32,000 nucleotides of DNA from Promethearchaeota archaeon (GCA_048939465.1 JBHLPL010000008.1:454-32453); one strand, 5' to 3'. Positions 2,436-23,071 are shown, counted from the first letter of the stretch. A program made the numbers and translations. Notes: generated from the sequence alone by a model not told the origin.

Positions 2436-4403
2436 ATGATCCCGATACAGAGGGTAGTTTTATACAAACACGGAGTCGGATACTTCGAAAGGCGGGGAAA
2501 GGTCAGAGAAACAGCAGCGTTGAAATTAAGGTTCAAGAAAGCTGAGATGAGTGATGTTTTGAAAAGCCTTTCTGTGATGGATTTGGGCGGTGGAAGGGTT
2601 TCTACCGTATCCTATGAGGCCGCTCCCACCATTTCGAAACTGCTTGAGAATATCGCAGTCAATGTACCTGAAACGAGTTCCTTAACCGAGCTGATAAAGC
2701 AAATCACTGGTATTGAGGTTGAGATTTCTTTCAACGGAGAGAAAACTCAAGGAAGAGTTCTGGGAATCGAGACCACCGTGGAAGTGGAGGATAAGGTTAA
2801 ACGAAATATCGACCACATCGTCCTTTTGAAAGATGATTCAATAATTACTGTGAAGCTTTCAGACATCAAGAATCTAGCTATTATGGATGAGGATGTTAAA
2901 AGAGATCTAGCGTATTTTGCGGACATCATTTCAGACTCAAAGAAAGAGGAGCTTAAGTCCGTTACCATTCTTTTTGAAGGAGAAGGAGAAAGAGATGCTG
3001 TGATATCTTACATGATTGAGGTCCCGGTCTGGAAAACAAGCTATCGATTGATAATCTTTGAAGATCGGACAGTCCTTCAAGGATGGGCTATCGTGGACAA
3101 TATCTTGGATGAAGACTGGGATGGTGTGGGGCTTTCGCTGGTTGCAGGACTGCCGATTTCATTTCGTCACGATCTGTACACTCCCCGGTATGTTGTCCGT
3201 CCTGAGGTAGAAGTTGAAGAAAGACTTGGGGTGGCTCCAGTAGAACTTGAAGAAGGGGCTGAAGCTGCTGAGCGGGCCGAGATGAAGGCATATGCGCTGG
3301 CAGATAGACCAGCTCCCGTGGGGGGTCCCGGCCTAGCTAAGAAGGCCAGAGCTTTCCGCAGTGCCATGGAACCACGAATGGACCGTGCAATTGAGACTGT
3401 TGAAACCATCGCGGAGGCCAAGGAAGCTGGAGAATTCCTGGTGTATAATGTAACTGTGCCTGTTACCGTAAAAAGGAATCAATCTGCTCTTGTTCCCATT
3501 CTGACTAGTGATGTGGATGGAAAGAAAGTTCTTGTGTATCAAGAGCATGCAAGACGCGGCAATCCGATCATGTGTCTTGAACTGACCAACAATTCCGATC
3601 TGACTCTGGAAAGCGGACCGGTTACTGTCTACGATGGAGGTGTTTATTCAGGTGAATGCATGCTACCTTTTATGGCGGAGGGTGAAAAGCGTCTCTTACC
3701 TTATGCTGTTGATCTGGAAACGACGGTGACTCGTGAGGATAGAATGAAGGACGAATCCGTCCACAAGGTCATTGTACGGGGACCGGTTGTTGAGAGTCTA
3801 TATTATAGAGCCCGTGAAGCCAAATACAAAATCAGGAACAAGACCGATGAAAACAAGGAGATAATCGTAGAGCACGAAAAAGAGCATGGATTTGAGCCTG
3901 TTGATATGGAGAAGCCGAGCGAAGAGACTGCAAGCTATTATCGATGGAGAATAGCAGTTGATTCGAAAGAGACAACGGAGTTCGTTGTAAAACTAAGAAG
4001 GCTGATCTCATCAAGTTTGTCCGTTGTCGGAATTACTTCTTCCGTACTTGAATTCTATTTGAGAAACAAATTAATCTCAGAAGAGGAATCTGAATACCTC
4101 GGCAAAATAGTCAAACTCTCTGAAGAGAAAACTGGTATTGAAGCGGAAATAGCTAAGTTAGAAGGTATGCAGAAGAAGATCTTTGAAGATCAGCCGAGAC
4201 TGAGGGATAACCTTAAGGCGTTGGGCAAAACCAGACAGGAGGACGAGCTTAGGACGAAATATGTCACAAAGCTATCTGAACAGGAGGACGCTTTAGAGAA
4301 GCTCAAAAAGCGAAGAGATTCTTTGTCTTCGAAATCTCACAAGTTGCAGTTGGAAATTGATGCGGCAATCAATGAGTTTGCGAAGTCTCGACAAGACCAC
4401 TAG
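2436..4403 (+). CDS. DUF4139 family protein
   Basis: N-terminal RVVLYKHGVGYFERRG, WKTSYRL..QGWAIVDN..DEDW..V.LSLVAG.P motifs and a C-terminal coiled coil. Confidence 0.8.
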   Translation: MIPIQRVVLYKHGVGYFERRGKVRETAALKLRFKKAEMSDVLKSLSVMDLGGGRVSTVSYEAAPTISKLLENIAVNVPETSSLTELIKQITGIEVEISFNGEKTQGRVLGIETTVEVEDKVKRNIDHIVLLKDDSIITVKLSDIKNLAIMDEDVKRDLAYFADIISDSKKEELKSVTILFEGEGERDAVISYMIEVPVWKTSYRLIIFEDRTVLQGWAIVDNILDEDWDGVGLSLVAGLPISFRHDLYTPRYVVRPEVEVEERLGVAPVELEEGAEAAERAEMKAYALADRPAPVGGPGLAKKARAFRSAMEPRMDRAIETVETIAEAKEAGEFLVYNVTVPVTVKRNQSALVPILTSDVDGKKVLVYQEHARRGNPIMCLELTNNSDLTLESGPVTVYDGGVYSGECMLPFMAEGEKRLLPYAVDLETTVTREDRMKDESVHKVIVRGPVVESLYYRAREAKYKIRNKTDENKEIIVEHEKEHGFEPVDMEKPSEETASYYRWRIAVDSKETTEFVVKLRRLISSSLSVVGITSSVLEFYLRNKLISEEESEYLGKIVKLSEEKTGIEAEIAKLEGMQKKIFEDQPRLRDNLKALGKTRQEDELRTKYVTKLSEQEDALEKLKKRRDSLSSKSHKLQLEIDAAINEFAKSRQDH

Positions 4404-5489: not shown

Positions 5490-6716
5490 TCAATCGATTC
5501 TAGGAGGAGCTTCCTTTCTGATTTCAGAAATTAGAAGATTGGAATCTAGGTATATTGTAAACGAGTGATCTTCATGTTTCAGTACCACGGGTACGGGGAA
5601 TTTCTCGGCCTTTTCTATTTTGGATTTATCAATTGAGAATTGTATTCTACTACTGCAGTGCGGGCAGACAACAACCTTCGATATTCTTCTCAGAGGCTCT
5701 GGCTCTTCTTCGGGTTCTATCTTGAATGCAGTTCGTTTCTTATCTATCCAGCTATGTATTGTAACTCTGGCTTCTGCCAAAAAGGACTTGAGATTGCTAA
5801 GCATATTCAGAACTGTAGTCTTGACTCGCTGCTTCTTGATTCCAGTCTCAGACATGAAGAAAAGTGATAGATTGTAACCCGGTTCCGGCTTCTCTAGAAC
5901 CGTGAAGACCCCCTTCTCGCCCAGCTTTCGTGTGAGTTTGTTCAATATGTAAAGGTCAAATTCATCTTTTACAGGAAATGCTAGTGACAAAACTGCGGAG
6001 TTGATGGTTTTTTTGGCGACTCCGTCACTGACTTTGAACTCCTGATATTTCGCATGTTCGCATATTTCGTCACTAAACACACACGGATAGTCTGGTCCGT
6101 GGGTTGGACAGTTGAATGGTTCTAGATTCAATATTATGTCTAGTACTTGATCTACTCCCATGAGCTTAGGAGGTTCCTTAACATCAATTCTGCAGAACTC
6201 AGCGCCTTCCCACATGCTACTGGCGAGTTCAATCTGGTGATTTGGGGCCAGAGCAGTCGTAATCTGATTCGAGGCAGGGATACATACAAAGTTACATAAG
6301 GCCACTTTTGAGAATTGTTTTCCCCTCTCAAACGCAGGGCAGTGTGTGATCTTGAGTGTGAGATTGCCTTCGCCGAACTTCTTTACATCAAACTCAAAGC
6401 CAAGAATTGGCAAACTGTTTTGATAGAATTCTTCTGTGACATCTATTCCTTTTCCGACTATTCGAAGAGTGTTCTTTATCTGAGACATTAACGCACCCAT
6501 CGATTTTTCCCTCTGCTCAGAAAGCAGGGTTGTTGCATCGCCCCCATATTTCTTCACGATCTCAGCGATGGCCTCGGTTTGAATTAGGAAGAGTGCATCA
6601 TGCAAAATCTTAAGCCTCGATTGGATATCCGTTTCGGATACTCCATCCACTATCGGTCTGTCATCCATTTCTATTACCTCTGTCGGTGGGTTTGAATCAT
6701 GTTCAAGCAAATACAC
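5490..6716 (-). CDS. Three-domain protein: V4R/ATC-hydrolase-like domain, ARPC4 (Arp2/3 subunit p20)-like domain, C-terminal CxxC Zn ribbon
   Basis: aa ~30-181 have LKITHCP..C..VC..G.EFCRI. aa ~186-331 contain TINSAVLSLAFPVKDEFD..K..R..VFTVLEKPEPGYNLSLF, matching ARPC4 SINSVRVSIAVKQADEIE..K..R..FFILRRKPVEGYDISFL. aa 351-354 are CPHC. The start may be Met17 (6668). Confidence 0.75.
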   Translation of the reverse strand: MYLLEHDSNPPTEVIEMDDRPIVDGVSETDIQSRLKILHDALFLIQTEAIAEIVKKYGGDATTLLSEQREKSMGALMSQIKNTLRIVGKGIDVTEEFYQNSLPILGFEFDVKKFGEGNLTLKITHCPAFERGKQFSKVALCNFVCIPASNQITTALAPNHQIELASSMWEGAEFCRIDVKEPPKLMGVDQVLDIILNLEPFNCPTHGPDYPCVFSDEICEHAKYQEFKVSDGVAKKTINSAVLSLAFPVKDEFDLYILNKLTRKLGEKGVFTVLEKPEPGYNLSLFFMSETGIKKQRVKTTVLNMLSNLKSFLAEARVTIHSWIDKKRTAFKIEPEEEPEPLRRISKVVVCPHCSSRIQFSIDKSKIEKAEKFPVPVVLKHEDHSFTIYLDSNLLISEIRKEAPPRID

Positions 6717-8095: not shown

Positions 8096-8145
8096 GGTGT
8101 TCCTCTTATATCAAGAGTTTTAAGAGCGTAGAACTAAGCTTTTAT

Positions 8146-8371
8146 CTTCTTCTCCGCGAGAAGACTCCGTCCGAAAGGATGGAGACGAATTGCGAGGAAT
8201 TTAAATACCTGTTCTGACGATAGACATGTAGAATTGAGTCGAGGTAAAACTCGCCAATTCTCAAACATAGAGTCTCAGGGCTAGGAAATGCCCGCAGAGA
8301 GCCTGCAAGACACATCCCTTTACGGAATGGATGAAGCAGGAAGCCCCATCCGAAAGGGTGGAGTAGTTCAC
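8146..8371 (+). mobile_element. Non-autonomous IS200/IS605-like element, class A, copy E2
   Basis: Follows TTTAT. Left hairpin CTCCGTCC-GAAA-GGATGGAG, TTTAAATA at 8200-8207, GAATTGAGTCGAGGTAAAACTCGCCAATTC identical to E1, right hairpin CCCCATCC-GAAA-GGGTGGAG then TAGTTCAC. Confidence 0.88.
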
Positions 8372-9078: not shown

Positions 9079-9921
9079 CTATGTCGGAAGAAACTGGCTT
9101 ACCCATGGCCAAAGCATTCCGATTGCCACAGAGAACAAAAAAACACCAAAGATGATTTTGAGTTTTTTGGACGAGATGCCCAAAGCTATACGTGGGCCCA
9201 AGTATGACCCAATGATGCTACCAATGACAACAACGATGCCTAACACAACATCCAGACTACCAAAGACAGCATGTCCCATTGTTCCGCATATTCCTGTCAT
9301 TATGATAGTAAACGTTGATGTTGCTACAGCTATGTGAATCGGCATCCCGCAAATGAAAACCATGACAGGAACAATTACGGCGCCTCCTCCGAGACCAAGC
9401 AACCCCCCCGCCAGCCCCGCGAAAAATCCTGCAATGAGACTCGGAATTATCTGTATAATATACTCGCTCCTCCTTCCATTTGAGTCGATTATTGCTCGTT
9501 TCCAAGTGAATCTTTTGGGTGTGCACTCTGTCACCTCCTTTTCTCCAACATTTGCCCGTATCATCATGGCCAAGCTGGTAGCCATAAGGACGGCCCCGAA
9601 GATTGCTTGGAGTCCTAATGATTCTAATTGAGTGGAGAGCAAGGCTCCTAAGAATGCTCCAACAGCAGCGGGGAGCCCTAATGCCAGTCCTACTCTATAA
9701 TCTACCATATTCTTCCTTGCATAGGCGATCGTACCCGAGATCTTGGAAAAGATTATCATGAACATACTAACTGCCACTGCCGCGTGAATATCCACCCCAA
9801 ATATCATGACAAGAATCGGGACTAGGAGAGATCCTCCTCCGATGCCTATCATAGTAGATATACAACCTACTCCCACAGACATCAGCGAGACTGCCAACGC
9901 AATATACCACGGAAATATCAT
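9079..9921 (-). CDS. Sulfite exporter TauE/SafE family membrane protein
   Basis: Duplicated GIGGG..LVP / GLGGG..IVP motifs and A.A.S.F..I. Start taken at MIFPW (9921) because the ORF-track extension to 9948 lies inside element E3. Confidence 0.85.
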   Translation of the reverse strand: MIFPWYIALAVSLMSVGVGCISTMIGIGGGSLLVPILVMIFGVDIHAAVAVSMFMIIFSKISGTIAYARKNMVDYRVGLALGLPAAVGAFLGALLSTQLESLGLQAIFGAVLMATSLAMMIRANVGEKEVTECTPKRFTWKRAIIDSNGRRSEYIIQIIPSLIAGFFAGLAGGLLGLGGGAVIVPVMVFICGMPIHIAVATSTFTIIMTGICGTMGHAVFGSLDVVLGIVVVIGSIIGSYLGPRIALGISSKKLKIIFGVFLFSVAIGMLWPWVSQFLPT

Positions 9922-9926
9922 TCTAT

Positions 9927-10274
9927 CTTCTTCTCCACAGGGCTCCATCCGAGAGGGTCAAGATGAATTGCGTTGTGTTTAAATGACTTTCTGGTAATTA
10001 AGTTTTGGGTTTGCTGCTCGCAAGAGGAGGGTTGCCCGTGGGCATGGACATAAAACTCGGTCTGGGAGCGCAGGTCCTGCGGGCACGTCTTGCTCGACAG
10101 CGTGCTTGAGTGCTTGTGGTACAGTAGAGATCGAGCTCACCCGGAGGTGAAAGCCTTCCTGTGCGGTCATTGATCTAGAGCGTAAAGACCTGTCCTCTGA
10201 GGAGCCGAAGCGTCCTCGGGAGTATGAAGCCGAGAGGGAGAAAATTCCTTGTGAAAGCTAGGAGAAGTTCGCAC
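9927..10274 (+). mobile_element. Non-autonomous IS200/IS605-like element, class B (long structured RNA), copy E3
   Basis: Same left end as class A (TTCTAT|CTTCTTCTCC...CCATCCGAGAGGGTCAAGATGAATTGCG), TTTAAATG at 9978-9985, body collinear with 13787-14086, degenerate right end GGAGAAGTTCGCAC (end +/-2 nt). Confidence 0.75.
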
Positions 10275-10410
10275 AGTATTCTCCTAACACATTCTTCCTT
10301 CTCCTCTTGAATTTCTGGCAAAAACCTTCAATTGCTACTTAGGCTCTGTTCTTCACGATCGCTTTAGGCAGAAGAATCCACCAATATCGTTAAATCCTTT
10401 GGCATTTTAG

Positions 10411-11460
10411 GTGACATCTGAAATGTCCCAAGACGGAAAAAGCAAGAAGGAGTTGATTCGGGGAGTCTTCGACGGTATCGTTCCGGAAGAGATTCCACTG
10501 AACATCGAGCTGGGAGTCCCTGAGATTGAAGCGCAGTATGGGGACATAGTCAATATATCGTGCAGGATTTCACGCTTCCGAAGGTTCTATGAAACCGGTG
10601 GTCCCTTTGGAAGGAGCAAAGGAACCATCCGGAGATGGGCAGAACGATTTGACATAGATACATATAAGTGGCCTAATCCAAAGGCAATAGGTAAGACCCT
10701 AAGAGAAGAGATAGCTCATACTGTGAAACAATTTGGTAGCCGATTCATTATCTGCAAGATACTGGGTCCAACTGAAACAGCTGAAGGATTCTGCGCTTCG
10801 GGTCAGGATGAAAAGGCAAAGCGTCTTGATCAAGTACAGCACAATTTCGATTTTGCTATGCTGTCCTTTCTAAATCCTGAATCTGCCGGCGAACTACATA
10901 AGAGAGTCACTACCTACATCGAGGAATGTATTCGAACTGCTGGAAGTCTAATGGAAGTCGATGCGATTAGAATCGCAGATGACGCCTTTGATTACAACCG
11001 ACCCCTATATCCAAATGGCTTCATAGAAACCGTTTACTTGCCCACTCACGAGATTCTTGCCAATCTCATTCATAACACAGGAAAGCTTGGGATTATGCAC
11101 TGCGATGGAGACATTCTCATTCTCAATGTTGCCAAGAGACTAAGCAACTTTTACCGTGGATTTCATCCCTTGGACCTGGTATCCAGGATTACCGCGAAAG
11201 ACGCGCAGAATTGGATAAGACGCCTAGGGGAAGCCAGAAAAACCCTTCCCGAATCCGTTTTCTTCACGGGGATTCCAGTTGAATTCCTATATGATTCAAG
11301 AGTATCTTCAGAGGAATTATGCGAGGTCTGCAGGAAGGCGATACTGTCAGTAGGAAAAAGATATTTGGTTCTGAGTACGACTCACCGTCCTTTCCCAGGA
11401 TCTAGTATTAAAACACAAGGTGTGATAGAAAAAATCGGGTCAATAAGGAAGCTGATTTAA
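10411..11460 (+). CDS. Uroporphyrinogen decarboxylase-like / corrinoid methyltransferase (MtaA/CmuA superfamily) protein
   Basis: D.YKWPNP, ILGPTE, IRIADD.., IMHCDGD, LVLSTTH TIM-barrel pattern. The start may be GTG 10411 or ATG slightly downstream. Confidence 0.6.
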   Translation: MTSEMSQDGKSKKELIRGVFDGIVPEEIPLNIELGVPEIEAQYGDIVNISCRISRFRRFYETGGPFGRSKGTIRRWAERFDIDTYKWPNPKAIGKTLREEIAHTVKQFGSRFIICKILGPTETAEGFCASGQDEKAKRLDQVQHNFDFAMLSFLNPESAGELHKRVTTYIEECIRTAGSLMEVDAIRIADDAFDYNRPLYPNGFIETVYLPTHEILANLIHNTGKLGIMHCDGDILILNVAKRLSNFYRGFHPLDLVSRITAKDAQNWIRRLGEARKTLPESVFFTGIPVEFLYDSRVSSEELCEVCRKAILSVGKRYLVLSTTHRPFPGSSIKTQGVIEKIGSIRKLI

Positions 11461-11473
11461 AAAAAAGAAGGAG

Positions 11474-11872
11474 CTAGTGTTTCACGGACTTGATAAGCAT
11501 CTTAAGCGGTATGCTTTGAGACTCACCTGACGGTAGTCTCCTTAGAATCATTAGCGGCAAAACACCCGCGTTTAGTTCTTCTTCGGCTACTTTGATGGGG
11601 TCCATTTTCCCTTCTGTAATATTGAGGATGATTGGTGCTCCCATGGCGATTTGGATTGCTCTAGCGCCGATTATTCGACTTTTTTCATATCTTGTTAGAG
11701 TGGGTGGACCGATTTCTATTTCCATCTCCTCTTTTGACTTTATGCTCCTTTTAGCTCTTTTTGGGGTTTTCCGTTTCTTACTGGTGCTCTCGGTGCTCTT
11801 CTTAGGGGCTTTCTTGGTTTTCTTAATCTTTTTTTGTGTCTTAGTACTCTTCTTCTGGTCCCCCAACACCTT
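11474..11872 (-). CDS. rpoK: DNA-directed RNA polymerase subunit Rpo6/K, apparently with a Lys-rich N-terminal extension
   Basis: [41 protein letters not shown] core. Start is uncertain: GTG 11872 with GGAG 6 nt upstream, or the internal ATG of MEIEIG. Confidence 0.9.
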
Positions 11873-13484
11873 CAGCTCCGGGTGGCCCTCCCATTTTTTC
11901 TTTACTTGATGCTATTACATCGTCAATCCTTAGAATCATCTCTGCTGCTTCGCCAGCTGACTTGATTGCCTGCTTCTTAACAGATACAGATTCCCAGACG
12001 TCAAGCTGACTCATGTCTCTGACCCCACCGTCGTACACGTCGACGCCTGTCCATTTCTCACCCTTTTCATGCCTAGCTCTCAGTTCCACTAATATGTCGA
12101 TAGGATCGAGTCCGGCATTTTCTGCAAGAGTTCTCGGAACGGTTTCTATAGATTCCGCGAATTTGGTCACCGCCAGCTGTTCTCTTCCACTGAAGCTTTC
12201 TGCGTAGTCTCTTATATCCTTTGCAACCTCGATCTCAGATGCGCCGCCGCCAGCTACGACCTTTGATTCGTGAATAAGGTTCCTAACAACGCATAGCGCG
12301 TCATGAAGCGCTCTCTCTGCTTCTTCAACTATCAACTCTGTTCCTCCGCGAATCAGTATGCTTACTGACTTGGGATTCTTGCAACCCTCAATGAATACCA
12401 TGTCATTGTCTGAGATTTTTCGCTCTTCGACCAATTCCGCTTTCCCGAGATCTTCTGGTGAAATATCATCGAGGTTAGTAACGATTTTTCCTCCGGTGGC
12501 TCTGGCGAGCTTCTCCAAATCTGATTTCTTTACACGACGAACAGCCAGTATTCCCTGCTTAGCTAGGAAATGTTGAACAAGGTCGTCAATTCCTTTTTGA
12601 CCTAACACAACATTTGCGCCGCTGGCCTTTATCTTATCCACTCTTTCCTTCAACATGTTTTGCTCTTCTTCAAGGAATGCCTGCATTTGCTCAACCTTAG
12701 TTATATTGATTTTGGCGTCAAACTCTGTTTTCTCGACTTCCAATGGAGCATCTAGGAGGGCTATTTTGGCATTAGTCACCCTCTTGGGCATACCTGGGTG
12801 AACTACTTCCTTGTCTAAAATGATACCATTTATATAAATTGTGTCCTCCAGACTCTCCCCCTGTACCTTTTCGACCTTGATGTTATCAATATCGACTTTG
12901 TAGTCCTCACCGACTTTGTCAGCAACCGACCGAACAGCTTTGACGGCTAGCTCAGCTAGACGATCTCGAGACCCCGCAATAACCTTGGTAGACATTGTAG
13001 TCCGGGCAGCCTTTCTGAGCATTTCCTCATTGTCAACTTCGAACTCTTCCGCGATTTGATCTAGTACTTCAATCGCCCTTTCCGCAGCCTTCCTATAGCC
13101 TTCAAGGATTATAGTTGGATGAATATTCTTGTCTAGTAATTCTTCTGCTCTCTTAAGCAGTTCTCCGGCAAGAACAACAGCGGTTGTTGTTCCATCTCCT
13201 ACCTCATCATCTTGAGTCTTTGCGACCTCAACCATCATTTTTGCGGCTGGATGCTGGACATCCATTTCCTTAAGTATTGTGGCACCGTCATTTGTTATGG
13301 TTACATCTCCCAGGCTGTCCACAAGCATCTTGTCCATTCCTCTCGGTCCAAGAGCACTTTTGACCGCCTCGGCAATTACTATTGCAGCATTAATGTTTCC
13401 TCGCTGTGCATCTCTTCCTCTGGTTCTTTGCGCACCTTCCTTGAGGATCAGCACCGGTGTTCCGCCTAAACCCGATTGCGCCAT
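11841..13484 (-). CDS. ths: Thermosome (group II chaperonin) subunit
   Basis: [39 protein letters not shown]. Confidence 0.98.
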
Positions 13485-13733
13485 TAATCACACACCTCAC
13501 ATGGTTTCTCATTTATCCGATTTTAATCGTAAAAGATTGTTTTAGTAGCAACTAGAACTTCTATATAAACCTTACGCTCAAGAAGTCTTATGAACTATTA
13601 GAGATACTCTTATTCAAAGCAATAGGCTCCGATTTTAAAGGAATATTACTGCGATCAGTAATCACAATCCTATTCCGATAGTTCCCAGAAGAATTCAAAG
13701 TGTCAGCCAACCCTATTCTGGTCAATTGTCTTT

Positions 13734-14086
13734 CCTTTTCTACGTGAGGACAGCCCACCGAGAGGGTTGAGACGAGTTGCGGTATCTTTAAATAACTTTT
13801 TCGGCAATTAAGCTTTGGATAGGATGCTCGTAACAGAAAGGTTGCCCAAAGGCATGGGTGCAAAACCCAGTCTGGGGGTGCAGGCCCTGCGGGTATATCA
13901 TGCTTGGCAGGGCTGTCCCGTGTCTGCGGCGCACACAAAGGACGTGAAGCAGCCCGAAGGCGAAAATCTTCCTGTGTATCTGTAGATCCGGAGCACAGAA
14001 ACCCCCCTCCGAGAAGCCAAAGCGTTCTCAGACGCTAAGGAAAAAGAGAGGGAGGAGGCCCTTTGCGGAAGCTGGGAGTAGTTCAC
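13734..14086 (+). mobile_element. Non-autonomous IS200/IS605-like element, class B, copy E4
   Basis: Diverged left end CCTTTTCTACGTGAGGACAGCCCACCGAGAGGGTTGAGACGAGTTGCG, TTTAAATA at 13787-13794, body homologous to E3, ends GGGAGTAGTTCAC. Confidence 0.78.
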
Positions 14087-14109
14087 AGCTTTGACCTCCG
14101 GGCTTTAAG

Positions 14110-14928
14110 ATGAGTAGAATAGTTCCCTGGACAGACGGGGGTAGAACTTTGAGTGGAAGTAACAATGTGGGAAGTATCGAAAGCGAATTGCAGAAAAGAT
14201 TCGACAGTTTCATAGGTGCACTGGACTCCGTGATACGGAAACTTGAATCGGGTTTGGAGGACCTAACCTCGTCTTCCGATACTAGGTTGAATGAATTCTC
14301 GGGAGTAGTTAATGGTCTAAAAAGCTCATTTTCTGATTTTCTTCAGAAATCTGAAGAACAGATAGCTAAACTGGTTGAAGATTCGGGAAGGATGAGCCGC
14401 GATCTGGAAGGATTGAAGACTGCTGGTTTTGATAAAGTGGTTAAAGAGTTTGAGAATCTACATACCCAGATGGATAACCTAAATACACAGGTTAGTAATG
14501 TTTCATCCCGCATCGAGAATTTCGGAAGGGACATGGGGGGTTTAAGCGAATCGGAAGAAAAGCTTGATAACGTACTTACAACGGTGTCACGGCAAGCAAG
14601 TATGATTGGCACCATAGATGAGAACTTAAACAAAGTGATCCCTGAGATCCGCAAAGATGTTGAGCGGGTCATCGATATGACGGCTGCACTGACAACGGAA
14701 CTCACGGCCCATCTTGACGCTATGAACGCGAAGATTGAGTCTTCTAATAAATCACAGGAATCTCTTGAAAAGAGGATAGGGGAGCTTGAAAGCAGGATAA
14801 ACAACAGACTAGAGAAGATTTCAACGGTCATAGAAAGTAGATTAGATGGATTGCGGAAACAATTCGATGAAGATATGATTAGGTGGACAGAAAACACTGA
14901 AACAAGAGAGAAGTCTCTAAAGAAGTAG
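14110..14928 (+). CDS. Long coiled-coil protein, no TM
   Basis: Continuous heptad pattern over about 240 aa; start uncertain. Confidence 0.7.
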   Translation: MSRIVPWTDGGRTLSGSNNVGSIESELQKRFDSFIGALDSVIRKLESGLEDLTSSSDTRLNEFSGVVNGLKSSFSDFLQKSEEQIAKLVEDSGRMSRDLEGLKTAGFDKVVKEFENLHTQMDNLNTQVSNVSSRIENFGRDMGGLSESEEKLDNVLTTVSRQASMIGTIDENLNKVIPEIRKDVERVIDMTAALTTELTAHLDAMNAKIESSNKSQESLEKRIGELESRINNRLEKISTVIESRLDGLRKQFDEDMIRWTENTETREKSLKK

Positions 14929-17772: not shown

Positions 17773-18951
17773 ATGGAGTATTTCCGTTATGGCACACCAT
17801 CTTCCACCGGTTTGGCCTTTCGAGATTTACAAGAGATTGTCGAGTCTCTGTTTCAAGTATCGGCATCATATTTAGACCACACGCATTATGGCGTCCCCAC
17901 ATTCATCTTGGAGCAAGATCAAGAAACAGAAGAACCATTTGAAAAGCTTCGAGCAAAACTCGAAGAACACAATTTGATGCCGACCCTCAGGAACGAGAAG
18001 AGAACAATACCCACAATCACTTCAGCAATCGCATCAAAGTCTGAAAACAGACAAAGCGTAACGCTTCTTAGAATAATGCCAAAGATGGAACGTCCTCAAA
18101 GGGATCGCAAGTGGAACCTCATCTTGTTTGGAGCCACTATTATAACTGTGGCCATTACAGGATATTTAATGGCTACAAGCCCCGACTTTCAATATGTATA
18201 CGGGGTGTTGTACCCCCCGGTTGGACCATTGGAGGTAATTATTACATTCACCTTGGCACTGATTGGGATTGTAGGGTTACATGAATTAGGTCATTTGATT
18301 TCTCTCAAGAGACATAAGATCAAATCATCTTTACCTTATTTCATTCCTGGTCTTCCCTTTTGGGGTCTTCCGACGTTTGGAGCCGTAATAGTCCAGCGAA
18401 GTCCTCCCACAAACCGTAAGGAGCTTTACGATATGGGGATAAGCGGTCCCTTACTTGGTTTTGCAGTCTCATTAATAGTAACAATAGTCGGTATAATGGT
18501 TTCTGCAGTGCTCACCCAAACGGATTACAATAACCTTATACAGAACTTCGAACTGGGGAGCATACCAGAACCCCTGATTTTTACACTTCTTACCGCCCTG
18601 CTATTTCCAGGAGGTCATTACATTTACCTTCACCCAATAGGACTTGCCGGCTGGCTTGGGATGCTCATAACAGCACTTAATCTATTCCCAATTGGCCAGC
18701 TTGATGGAGGACATGCAACCAGATCTTTGTTTGGCTCGAACTCTAAATATGTTTCCATAGGCGGTGCAGTAATATTATCAGCACTAGGTTATTTTTTCAT
18801 GGCAATACTTGTGTTGTTTATGGGCGGGATAGATCATCCGGGACCCCTAGATGACGTATCAAAACTGCCACTCGGTCGGAAGATACTCTCGGTTTCAATC
18901 GTAATAATTATTGTACTTTGCACTCCGCCGCTTATACTGAGTTTCTTCTGA
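17773..18951 (+). CDS. Site-2 protease (M50 intramembrane metalloprotease)
   Basis: HELGH, PYFIP..TFGAVI, GISGP, NLFPIGQLDGGH. Confidence 0.93.
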   Translation: MEYFRYGTPSSTGLAFRDLQEIVESLFQVSASYLDHTHYGVPTFILEQDQETEEPFEKLRAKLEEHNLMPTLRNEKRTIPTITSAIASKSENRQSVTLLRIMPKMERPQRDRKWNLILFGATIITVAITGYLMATSPDFQYVYGVLYPPVGPLEVIITFTLALIGIVGLHELGHLISLKRHKIKSSLPYFIPGLPFWGLPTFGAVIVQRSPPTNRKELYDMGISGPLLGFAVSLIVTIVGIMVSAVLTQTDYNNLIQNFELGSIPEPLIFTLLTALLFPGGHYIYLHPIGLAGWLGMLITALNLFPIGQLDGGHATRSLFGSNSKYVSIGGAVILSALGYFFMAILVLFMGGIDHPGPLDDVSKLPLGRKILSVSIVIIIVLCTPPLILSFF

Positions 18952-20306: not shown

Positions 20307-20433
20307 TCAATATCCCGGGACCTGTCGATTTTCCACTTCATATGGAATTTCTTTCTTTTAAATTGTCTCCCCAGTGCCACCCCTTTTGTCTTTCAATGGA
20401 ACGTGGCAGCTCCCTTTAAGAAGTATTCTGTTT

Positions 20434-20478
20434 TCTTTTCTCCAAGGAGATCCTATCCGAAAGGGCGGAGTGGTTCAC
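20434..20478 (+). mobile_element. Collapsed mini-element (left-end 5' part, one hairpin, right-end tail), copy M1
   Basis: TCTTTTCTCCAAGGAGATCCTATCCGAAAGGGCGGAGTGGTTCAC aligns to a fusion of the E2 left end and the E2 right end. Confidence 0.7.
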
Positions 20479-22309: not shown

Positions 22310-22475
22310 TGATTCACTCCATTGTTTCCTAATATTTCTTAATCATTCTATCTTTTTAAATTAACCTATTCTCAAATCGTTCTTTAATTTAACTTACATA
22401 TTCTTAAGTATAGTTATACAACTCGCAATTAATTCCTTCTATCAATAAACCACATCTCTTCATAAAGATTTTTGC

Positions 22476-22522
22476 TTTCTTCTCCGCAAGAAGACCCCGG
22501 CCGAAAGGATGGGGCGGTCCGC
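22476..22522 (+). mobile_element. Collapsed mini-element, copy M2
   Basis: TTTCTTCTCCGCAAGAAGACCCCGGCCGAAAGGATGGGGCGGTCCGC. The tail GGGGCGGTCCGC differs from GGGGTAGTTCAC only by four transitions. Confidence 0.72.
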
Positions 22523-22842: not shown

Positions 22843-22850
22843 GGGTTCAT

Positions 22851-23071
22851 CTATTGCCCGCAAGAAGACCCCATCCGAAAGGGTGGAGACGAATTGCGAG
22901 GAGCTCAAATACTTGTTTTTACGACAAGCTTGCGGAATTGAGCCGAGCTAGCACTCACCAGTTTGCAGAGACAGAGTTCTAGGGCAGGAACTGCCCGTAG
23001 ACCCTCCCAGACATATCCCGCTGGGAGCGGATGAAATAGGAAGCTCCTCATGAAGGCCAAGAGTAGTTCAC
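22851..23071 (+). mobile_element. Non-autonomous IS200/IS605-like element, class A, copy E5 (decayed TATA and right hairpin)
   Basis: Follows TTCAT. Left hairpin CCCCATCC-GAAA-GGGTGGAG, CTCAAATA in place of the TATA, GGGCAGGAACTGCCC, ends GAGTAGTTCAC. Confidence 0.82.

Follow-up and report, generated by a model that had tools for sequence, protein, structure and literature searches.

The window analysed here, a stretch of 32,000 nt (GCA_048939465.1 JBHLPL010000008.1:454-32453), belongs to a Promethearchaeota archaeon represented by a metagenome-assembled genome (G000, the window being G000:C137:454-32453). The assembly comprises 152 contigs and 1.96 Mb, is 91% complete, has a G+C content of 43% and carries archaeal genes, e.g., those for thermosome, AMP phosphorylase and ribose-1,5-bisphosphate isomerase. 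Two related intergenic elements are located in the window: E3 (9927-10272), next to a TauE/SafE gene of the minus strand, and E4 (13730-14086), in front of an open reading frame (ORF) for a coiled-coil protein. They belong to a family called class B here, as distinct from the shorter class A cassettes of the same window. We consider class B, with a probability of about 0.8, to consist of non-autonomous, protein-less IS200/IS605 elements, i.e., palindrome-associated transposable elements (PATEs) or stand-alone omegaRNA cassettes, derived from a second TnpB lineage, F4.

E3 and E4 are collinear and diverged, with 65% identity over a 295/300-nt stretch, in agreement with the preliminary description of this DNA. 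The latter placed the collinear segment of E3 at 9978-10274; the segment stands while its end does not, as E3 ends at 10272 with GTTCGC. Class B elements are 346-357 nt long versus 227-232 nt for class A, and the left- and right-end sequences are common to both, so class B is indeed housed in the class A transposon ends and exceeds class A by about 120 nt, as claimed earlier. The layout is an IS200/IS605 left-end hairpin, TTTAAAT, about 270 nt rich in hairpins, a right-end hairpin and the terminal GTTCAC. Subterminal imperfect palindromes are present at both ends of all full copies (CTCCATCC-GAGA-GGGTGGAG type at the left end, LE, and CTCCTTGC-GAAA-GCTGGGAG type at the right end, RE), with no terminal inverted repeats, and the right-end helix is 88% paired across copies. 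Positions 1-67 of the class A copy A1 match E3 at 80.6%. The TTTAAAT box is nearly invariant in 11/12 class B copies extending that far, and TnpB-bearing elements have the same box after their LE.

No ORF of 60 aa or more is present on the plus strand inside E3 or E4, there is no TnpB gene within the window, and the class B reading frames are broken between copies. A small ORF from an internal ATG (MGVKPSLGAQVLRVYPA in the consensus) was considered as a possible gene and rejected, its start or frame being lost in the copies C138a, C138b, C106 and C39. Coordinates of the features are collected in the table.

Table. Features of E3 and E4 and class A cassettes in the window (positions counted from the first letter of the window; H and S, helices of the 12-helix model; MFE, minimum free energy)
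Feature	Position	Strand	Basis or remark
TCTAT, target/TAM-like motif (TAM, target-adjacent motif)	9922..9926	+	adjoins the E3 left end on its 5' side; 12-copy left-flank alignment, family consensus TTTAT
E3 left end (LE)	9927..9977	+	direct-repeat families D2/D3; class A LE 80.6% identical
E3 LE subterminal imperfect hairpin, CTCCATCC-GAGA-GGGTCAAG	9943-9962	+	
E3 TTTAAAT, archaeal TATA-like box	9978..9984	+	putative promoter
E3 predicted omegaRNA scaffold	9998..10272	+	54/62 model pairs retained; MFE z -1.13
E3 H1-H4	10017-10093	+	
E3 H5/H6	10100-10142	+	
E3 S7-S8	10143-10185	+	
E3 S9/S10	10189-10241	+	
E3 right-end hairpin	10245-10264	+	
E3 terminal GTTCGC	10267-10272	+	
E3 3' flank, putative guide of E3 transcript	10273..10292	+	by analogy with TnpB omegaRNAs
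E4 left end, degenerate	13730..13786	+	hairpin remnant GCCCACC-GAGA-GGGTTGAG at 13753-13771
E4 TTTAAAT, TATA-like box	13787..13793	+	
E4 predicted omegaRNA scaffold	13808..14086	+	57/62 model pairs retained; MFE -104 kcal/mol, z -2.2
E4 H1-H4	13827-13903	+	
E4 H5/H6	13910-13955	+	homologous to F4 tnpB 3' coding end
E4 S7-S8	13956-13998	+	not in F4
E4 S9/S10	14002-14055	+	
E4 right-end hairpin	14059-14078	+	
E4 terminal GTTCAC	14081-14086	+	
E4 3' flank, putative guide of E4 transcript	14087..14106	+	would reach the start of ORF 14110-14928
Class A cassettes	2174-2400, 8140-8371, 22844-23071		227-232 nt; LE + last ~95 nt of F1 TnpB element

Class B copies were located by blastn and a covariance model. 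G000 contains 11 full copies (two each on contigs C137 and C138, one each on C24, C106, C39, C77, C10, C69 and C89), three damaged ones (the degenerate C134, C48 carrying an insertion, and C125, in which the left end is missing and an internal part deleted) and a more distant relative at C69:8557-8708. At least four further copies, mostly at contig ends, were found in the congener G002. TTTAT or a close variant (TCTAT, TTGT) is located directly 5' of the LE in most of 12 copies, the right flanks of the copies are unrelated to each other, and the left and right flanks of any copy are unrelated as well. A TTTAT left flank combined with unrelated right flanks is what IS200/IS605 elements leave when they insert 3' of a target motif with no target duplication. 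The orthologous intergenic sites of both E3 and E4 in the congeners G001 and G002 are without the element, the flanking genes being 74-84% identical; the intergenic divergence of the congeners is too high for the exact empty site to be aligned. Within G000 the copies show a star-like mutual identity of 64-82%, each being nearer to the consensus-like copies of G002 (71-85%). Decay has gone furthest in E3, with 64-71% identity to the other copies.

The relation of class B to TnpB was found at the 3' end of tnpB genes. F4 TnpB (394-417 aa, C-terminus ...NRDLNGAINIGNRLLGYMLKSRAVPQSV...EAPCES) is intact in G001 (394 aa), occurs also in G002 and G018 and has a wide distribution among archaea, Asgard and others. 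When the class B consensus is aligned locally with F4 3' ends, z is 15-16 against shuffles, as compared to 5.5 for F1, 3.6 for F2 and 2.2 for F3. The similarity falls into two blocks. The first extends from GGGAGCGCAGGTCTTGCGGGTATATCC (F4: GGTAACAGGCTCTTAGGCTATATGC) through the H5 stem GGGCTG...CAGCCC and the inner hairpin H6, and the second covers the last ~110 nt, AAACCTCCCC...GAGGGAGGAA...CCTTGCGAAAGCT.GG..AGTTCAC. In the F4 gene of G002:C180, the ORF tail ...GNRLLGYMLKSRAVPQSVAATEREVNQPQ... is coded by sequence collinear with class B, while the tail ...CGLEYNRDLNGAINIGNRLLGYMLKSRAVPQSVAATEREVNQPQTSP...REEAPCES spans the whole 3' region and ends inside the right-end hairpin.

R1, a covariance model of the class B 5' domain, detects its H5/H6 module within F4 tnpB 3' ends and gives no match at the F1, F2 and F3 TnpB loci. 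H6 reads GCAGTC-TGT-GGCTGC or TCAGTC-TGT-AACTGA in F4 and GTGYC-TGT-GGCAC in class B, so that double changes retain the pairs; paired substitutions in H5 are seen in the G018 orthologue too (GGCG/CGCC). These paired substitutions between F4 and class B indicate that the module is an RNA element also within coding sequence. Class B itself is non-coding: it is shifted by one base relative to the F4 frame in the aligned region, and stops and indels vary between copies. The position of an omegaRNA, i.e., at the tnpB 3' end, overlapping the end of the ORF and stopping at the RE boundary, is assigned to class B by homology only.

This homology also bears on the identity of the effector. The preliminary description offered the omegaRNA of a different RNA-guided effector (IscB/IsrB) as one option, and a guide RNA of these or of some other protein would agree with the long (~270 nt), multi-stemmed scaffold and with the lack of an Rfam family match. 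However, the scaffold ends at the right end with its guide side 3', as for TnpB, while IscB/IsrB omegaRNAs sit 5' of the gene and have the guide at the 5' side. H5/H6 and the last 110 nt share homology with the 3' ends of genes from a TnpB family. No RRXRR domain (PF14239) match was found in G000, which is a weak argument as the control of this search was also silent. Taken together, this makes another effector extremely improbable. The proposal that the shared IS200/IS605 ends house a second class of omegaRNA-type scaffold was, on the other hand, borne out. So was the view that class B is not a named Rfam family: with Rfam 15 the window has no match at the gathering score and the best one at E<=10 is a chance 19.8-bit match to a long non-coding RNA; for class B no Rfam ribozyme, riboswitch or intron matches even at E<=10, and no ribozyme or intron signature was found in it.

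Two parts of the class B scaffold have no evident counterpart in F4. One is a 45-nt insertion of two hairpins, S7 (GAAGG/CCTTC) and S8 (CTGTGC...GCACAG). The other is the first ~83 nt, which comprise H1 (CUC-GUAA-GAG), H2, H3 and part of H4 and have a weak collinear match to F4 Zn-finger codons. An independent F4 deletion derivative, G000:C69:36796-37011, has almost the same 3' extent as class B, which suggests that this extent is the functional omegaRNA unit. Judging by sequence, the extra ~120 nt would thus be the ORF-overlapping half of an F4-type scaffold together with two added hairpins and a 5' block of uncertain origin. Decayed tnpB coding sequence, which the preliminary description expected to speak against a structured RNA, is what the H4-H6 part of the extra region turned out to be; since a TnpB omegaRNA overlaps the 3' end of the ORF, the RNA reading is left standing.

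In 151 Asgard genomes R1 matches only this genus and two elements (49 and 27 bits) of G028, a member of another family; the G028 elements are also ORF-less. The block AGAGGAAGGTT.CCCAAC...AAAACC.AGT is the best-conserved part between them and class B. A search for the motif GGAAGGNTNCCCAACRGYAT in five Asgard genomes found, beyond the two G028 elements, only chance matches inside coding genes. For the degenerate 19-mer GARGCCRAAGYGYYCTCAG in genome and metagenome contigs, the matches listed were chance ones, and among them none was class B-like by blastn. Thirteen of 13 consecutive bases (TGCCCAACGGCAT) are identical to the F2 tnpB 3' tail of G000 (codons MPNGIG), the z of 3.6 given above being that of the F2 local alignment; this identity may reflect a shared hairpin module, a chimeric origin or chance.

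An inserted functional domain, the other option of the preliminary description, is weakly suggested by the 45-nt hairpin pair that is not in the TnpB-linked form and by the uncertain origin of the 5' 83 nt. According to this explanation the 5' block (H1-H3, AGAGGAAGGUUGCCCAACGGCAU...AAAACCCAGU) would be an accessory module of RNA, either evolved within guide cassettes that lack an ORF or brought into them by recombination, and S7-S8 would be added to it or take its place as the accessory domain. The domain could serve, for instance, stability, maturation outside the tnpB mRNA or a second lineage of TnpB. The conservation of the block in another Asgard family, its absence beside any TnpB ORF, the 13-nt identity with the tail of the unrelated F2, the lack of S7-S8 in F4 and the excess of G-U over A-C in H1-H4 (24:9, p 0.03; see below) agree with it. 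However, the collinear match to Zn-finger codons, weak as it is, lies at the expected place. The independent derivative has the same extent. By these two observations, the 5' part may be the diverged ORF-overlapping half of an ordinary scaffold. R1 has no match at the F2 loci, and the Rfam search gave no ribozyme, riboswitch or intron. We regard an accessory module as unlikely, both for the 5' block by itself and for the block and/or S7-S8. If real, the 5' module might allow a cassette to mature or be employed away from the tnpB mRNA, or to be served by two lineages of TnpB.

The structure of the presumed RNA was evaluated on 13 copies. The substitutions that were said to keep the pairing in four named hairpins do not survive this test: the hairpins are 79.9% paired versus 80.5% in shuffles, 437 of 500 shuffles being as good, so there is no covariation above shuffles. 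Two of the named compensatory changes occur in E3 and E4 only. For the GAGGA/TCCTC stem the pairing is 66%, the supposed compensatory pair (247:259) being unpaired in 10/13 copies; for ACC-CGGA-GGT it is 77%, and the competing stem GAAGG/CCTTC is the better fit, with A-U changed to G-C in three copies. Both the GAGGA/TCCTC and the ACC/GGT stems were rejected as family features.

A 12-helix model (H1-H6, S7-S10 and the right-end hairpin; 62 pairs) was tested on a structure-blind MAFFT alignment. It is 89.6% paired, compared to 35-50% with partners slid, and this level is reached by 3/500 shuffles; 11 pairs are changed on both sides versus 7.2 +/- 2.1 in shuffles (27/500). Such levels occur in 5-25% of unconstrained alignments and the helices were picked with the sequences known, so we consider the support for the model to be modest. 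The alignment was then widened to distant relatives, namely the G028 pair of elements, the relative on C69, cassettes of other classes and F4 genes. In this set, which was fitted to the model and includes weak matches, each of the five measures gives 0/500 and 22/27 pairs are changed on both sides versus 9.9 +/- 2.2.

Pairing was also compared with neutral decay. If the consensus is made to decay by simulated substitutions in the proportions seen in unpaired columns, 79.5 +/- 1.6% pairing is predicted, as against 88.4% observed; for the variation-blind MFE structure of the consensus the values are 77.6 +/- 1.4% and 85.1%, respectively. Taking the consensus as the ancestor makes the simulation approximate. 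Where pairs depart from the Watson-Crick consensus, the changes are biased as well: G-U and A-C occur 81:37, the expected G-U share being 0.555 (one-sided p 0.002). The ratio given above for H1-H4 is accompanied by 46:20 in the 3' domain and 11:8 in H5/H6. As these G-U pairs exist only on the plus strand, the bias points to selection on a plus-strand single-stranded molecule. RNA is the most plausible one, because only the end hairpins matter for the single-stranded DNA intermediate of transposition. The fold of E4 differs between strands too: the plus strand is 13 kcal/mol more stable than the opposite one (-90.9 kcal/mol, z -0.75). A near-consensus G002 copy folds with z -3.6, so that the folding energies point the same way as the pairing tests.

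The identity of the transposase that moves these elements can be suggested from the ends. The sole Y1 transposase found in G000 is TnpA of 149 aa, encoded in the element G000:C105:991-2845 (Y1_Tnp at C105:1180-1545). Its gene overlaps the start of a 433-aa tnpB (F3), making up one complete IS605-type element. The ends of this element are similar to class A/B ends (LE 80-87%, RE 92%), and the LE of the class B copy on C24 is 80% identical to its LE. It is the one autonomous IS605-type element of G000 and probably mobilises all cassette classes.

The other TnpB families of G000 are in different states. F1 TnpB (384 aa, gene C2:26090-27241) is located in the intact element G000:C2:25971-27282. 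Class A, with about 20 copies genome-wide, consists of two halves, the left end of the F1 element and its last 95 nt. F2 TnpB is split across contig ends, the N-terminal part being in G000:C70:3-926 and the C-terminal part in G000:C55:5738-6043, with the overlap ...KPHYTSKEC; this split is due to assembly and not to biology. F4 remnants are present in G000 at C69:36796-37011 and on C127, C116, C10, C23, C138 and C151. Cassettes in which F4 3' ends are joined to other 5' parts were also noticed (G000:C69:36796-37011, G002:C1:12870-13016, G000:C77:14755-14901 and G002:C95:7755-7866), one such F4-based cassette being a mini class B in which the right-end hairpin follows H1 immediately. Cassettes are modular in their interiors. 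Two short solo pieces of the window, 20426-20478 and 22470-22512, match only the end hairpin region (repeat families D2/D4) and are probably terminal-only remnants.

Several observations weigh against the assignment of class B to functional F4 cassettes. The first ~83 nt of the scaffold are not significantly similar to F4 tnpB (z <= 1.5), and no element with the class B 5' domain beside a TnpB ORF was found by the R1 search of the 151 Asgard genomes, so the full-length parent that the preliminary description suggested to look for did not appear. An intact F4 TnpB was not found in G000 by a PF07282 search and tblastn, which did find the F1, F2 and F3 genes, in an assembly that is 91% complete. 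Covariation is weak within class B alone: for the 5' domain 40/500 to 269/500 shuffles match the observed values. The exact fold is uncertain, as H2 competes with a long-range stem GCUUUGGGUAA/UUGCCCAACGGC and H4 with CGCAG-GUC-UUGCG. E3 (z -1.1) folds no better than shuffles, and the C77 copy (z -1.5) is likewise indistinguishable from them. Finally, all class B segments are about equally diverged (66-77%) in a star-like manner, which is how old decaying copies look.

The last points could also be accommodated if an omegaRNA cassette existed in the ancestor and its present copies are neutral relics without a partner nuclease, with the pairing inherited and not maintained. Star-like divergence with near-uniform segment identity, the missing F4 TnpB, the poor folding of E3 and C77 relative to the congener copy and the existence of truncated or internally deleted copies (C125, C134, C48) would all be expected of such fossils. 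However, pairing exceeds the neutral-decay expectation by 7-9 points, and the strand-specific excess of G-U over A-C is unexpected under free decay since insertion. In addition, repeats lie at contig ends and the assembly is incomplete, so the TnpB gene may be unassembled. We consider complete fossilisation a conceivable outcome, if a less probable one. The divergence has, from the sequences, the pattern of an old burst followed by independent decay, and this pattern along with the missing F4 gene makes the present-day function of class B in G000 uncertain; the pairing excess argues that constraint has acted for at least part of the time since the burst.

With F4-derived omegaRNA cassettes as the preferred reading, the following scheme can be proposed. 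Each copy would have originated from an F4 TnpB-only element by an internal deletion that joined the left end and the TATA-like box to approximately the last 260 nt. The retained 3' part, which in the full element is both the end of the tnpB ORF and the omegaRNA scaffold, would be kept as a non-coding structured RNA ending at GTTCAC. The single Y1 TnpA of G000 presumably uses the common end hairpins to mobilise the copies in trans and places them 3' of TTTAT. A transcript started at the TATA-like box would consist of the ~270-nt scaffold and, as a guide, the flanking DNA. If class B is active today, a compatible F4-type TnpB could bind this RNA and cut the empty donor site, the element then being restored by recombination.

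The surroundings of the elements deserve attention as well. The TauE/SafE ORF (9079-9948, minus strand) is over-extended: the alignment with the orthologues of two congeners stops at the ATG at 9921-9919, and the ORF is listed up to 9948 because an ATG lies within the E3 left-end hairpin. The true start codon is 9919-9921, and E3 begins 5 nt away. On the plus strand, CAT at 9919-9921, which aligns with the TauE start codon in congeners, is directly followed by TCTAT at 9922..9926. On the side of E4, ORF 14110-14928 codes for a 272-aa coiled-coil protein with weak matches to many coiled-coil families. It begins 24 nt past the E4 right end, so an E4 transcript would run straight into it. Five other ORFs of the window (349-655 aa) have no family assigned: 2436-4403, 5490-6716 and 10411-11460 have no Pfam or NCBIfam match, while 82-1560 and 17773-18951 have no match in the NCBIfam scan, the only one made for them.

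By crude ORF calls, the left end is bordered by a divergent gene in 9 of 12 class B copies, and in 7 of 12 a co-oriented ORF follows the right end, in five cases starting within 140 nt. This arrangement would suit a mobile promoter or leader acting mainly in cis, its TATA-like box and structured leader driving the gene 3' of the right end. However, the bias in orientation is slight, the neighbours of five copies are convergent or distant, and a cis role leaves the conserved right-end-proximal scaffold unexplained. The TTTAT target resembles an archaeal TATA box and might direct insertions to promoter regions, so that insertion 3' of it could explain the bias. Such a cis role as the main function is, in our opinion, very improbable.

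If interpreted as F4-derived cassettes, class B elements provide an Asgard-archaeal example of stand-alone omegaRNA cassettes. A single small genome would then harbour scaffolds for the guide RNAs of multiple TnpB lineages, with four or more protein families as well as three or more cassette classes that have one set of transposon ends and a single TnpA in common. For annotation, the family accounts for about 13 intergenic structured repeats and moves the start of the TauE gene back out of the E3 left end. Searches for genome-editing tools gain a scaffold of ~270 nt, with TTTAT as its probable TAM, to be tried with F4 TnpB of related Asgard archaea.

Class B is neither a new RNA class nor a sign of a new effector, since elements of this kind are already known. 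Protein-less IS200/IS605 derivatives, the PATEs, were described in Haloquadratum walsbyi (Dyall-Smith 2011, PMC3119063) and are also known from Geobacillus stearothermophilus (Meers 2023, PMC10055086). PATEs often encode omegaRNAs that need TnpB in trans, and a TnpB omegaRNA takes its guide from the DNA adjoining the right end on the 3' side (PMC10055086). Like PATEs, class B elements are protein-less, have many dispersed copies, retain the omegaRNA region and carry IS200/IS605 subterminal hairpins common to tnpA/tnpB elements of the same genome. They differ from the described PATEs in their Asgard host, the ~270-nt interior, the archaeal TATA-like box and the matching TnpB, which was not found intact in the assembly. 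Stand-alone mobilised omegaRNAs functioning in trans with compatible effectors are mentioned in PMC10691335 (citing Altae-Tran 2021). Class B resembles these OMEGA loci as mobilised guide-RNA loci that lack an effector or transposase gene and are expected to be used in trans; unlike them, its copies are old and diverged, and function in trans would be ascribed to it by analogy.

The omegaRNA of TnpB itself (reRNA of IS605/IS1341-type elements, e.g., ISDra2) is, like class B, a multi-stem RNA at the 3' end of the element that stops at the right-end boundary. TnpB is stated in PMC10278001 to process its own mRNA into omegaRNA, and the overlap of the omegaRNA with the end of the tnpB ORF is seen in the full-length relatives of class B. 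Class B has no sequence or Rfam-level similarity to characterised omegaRNAs, and it contains two extra hairpins and a 5' block not alignable with tnpB-linked relatives. A further comparison is offered by class A of the same genome. Class A comes from the F1 TnpB family, is ~120 nt shorter and has its parent intact in G000, unlike class B, but it shares with class B the same LE, TATA-like box and RE tail and is the same kind of deletion derivative.

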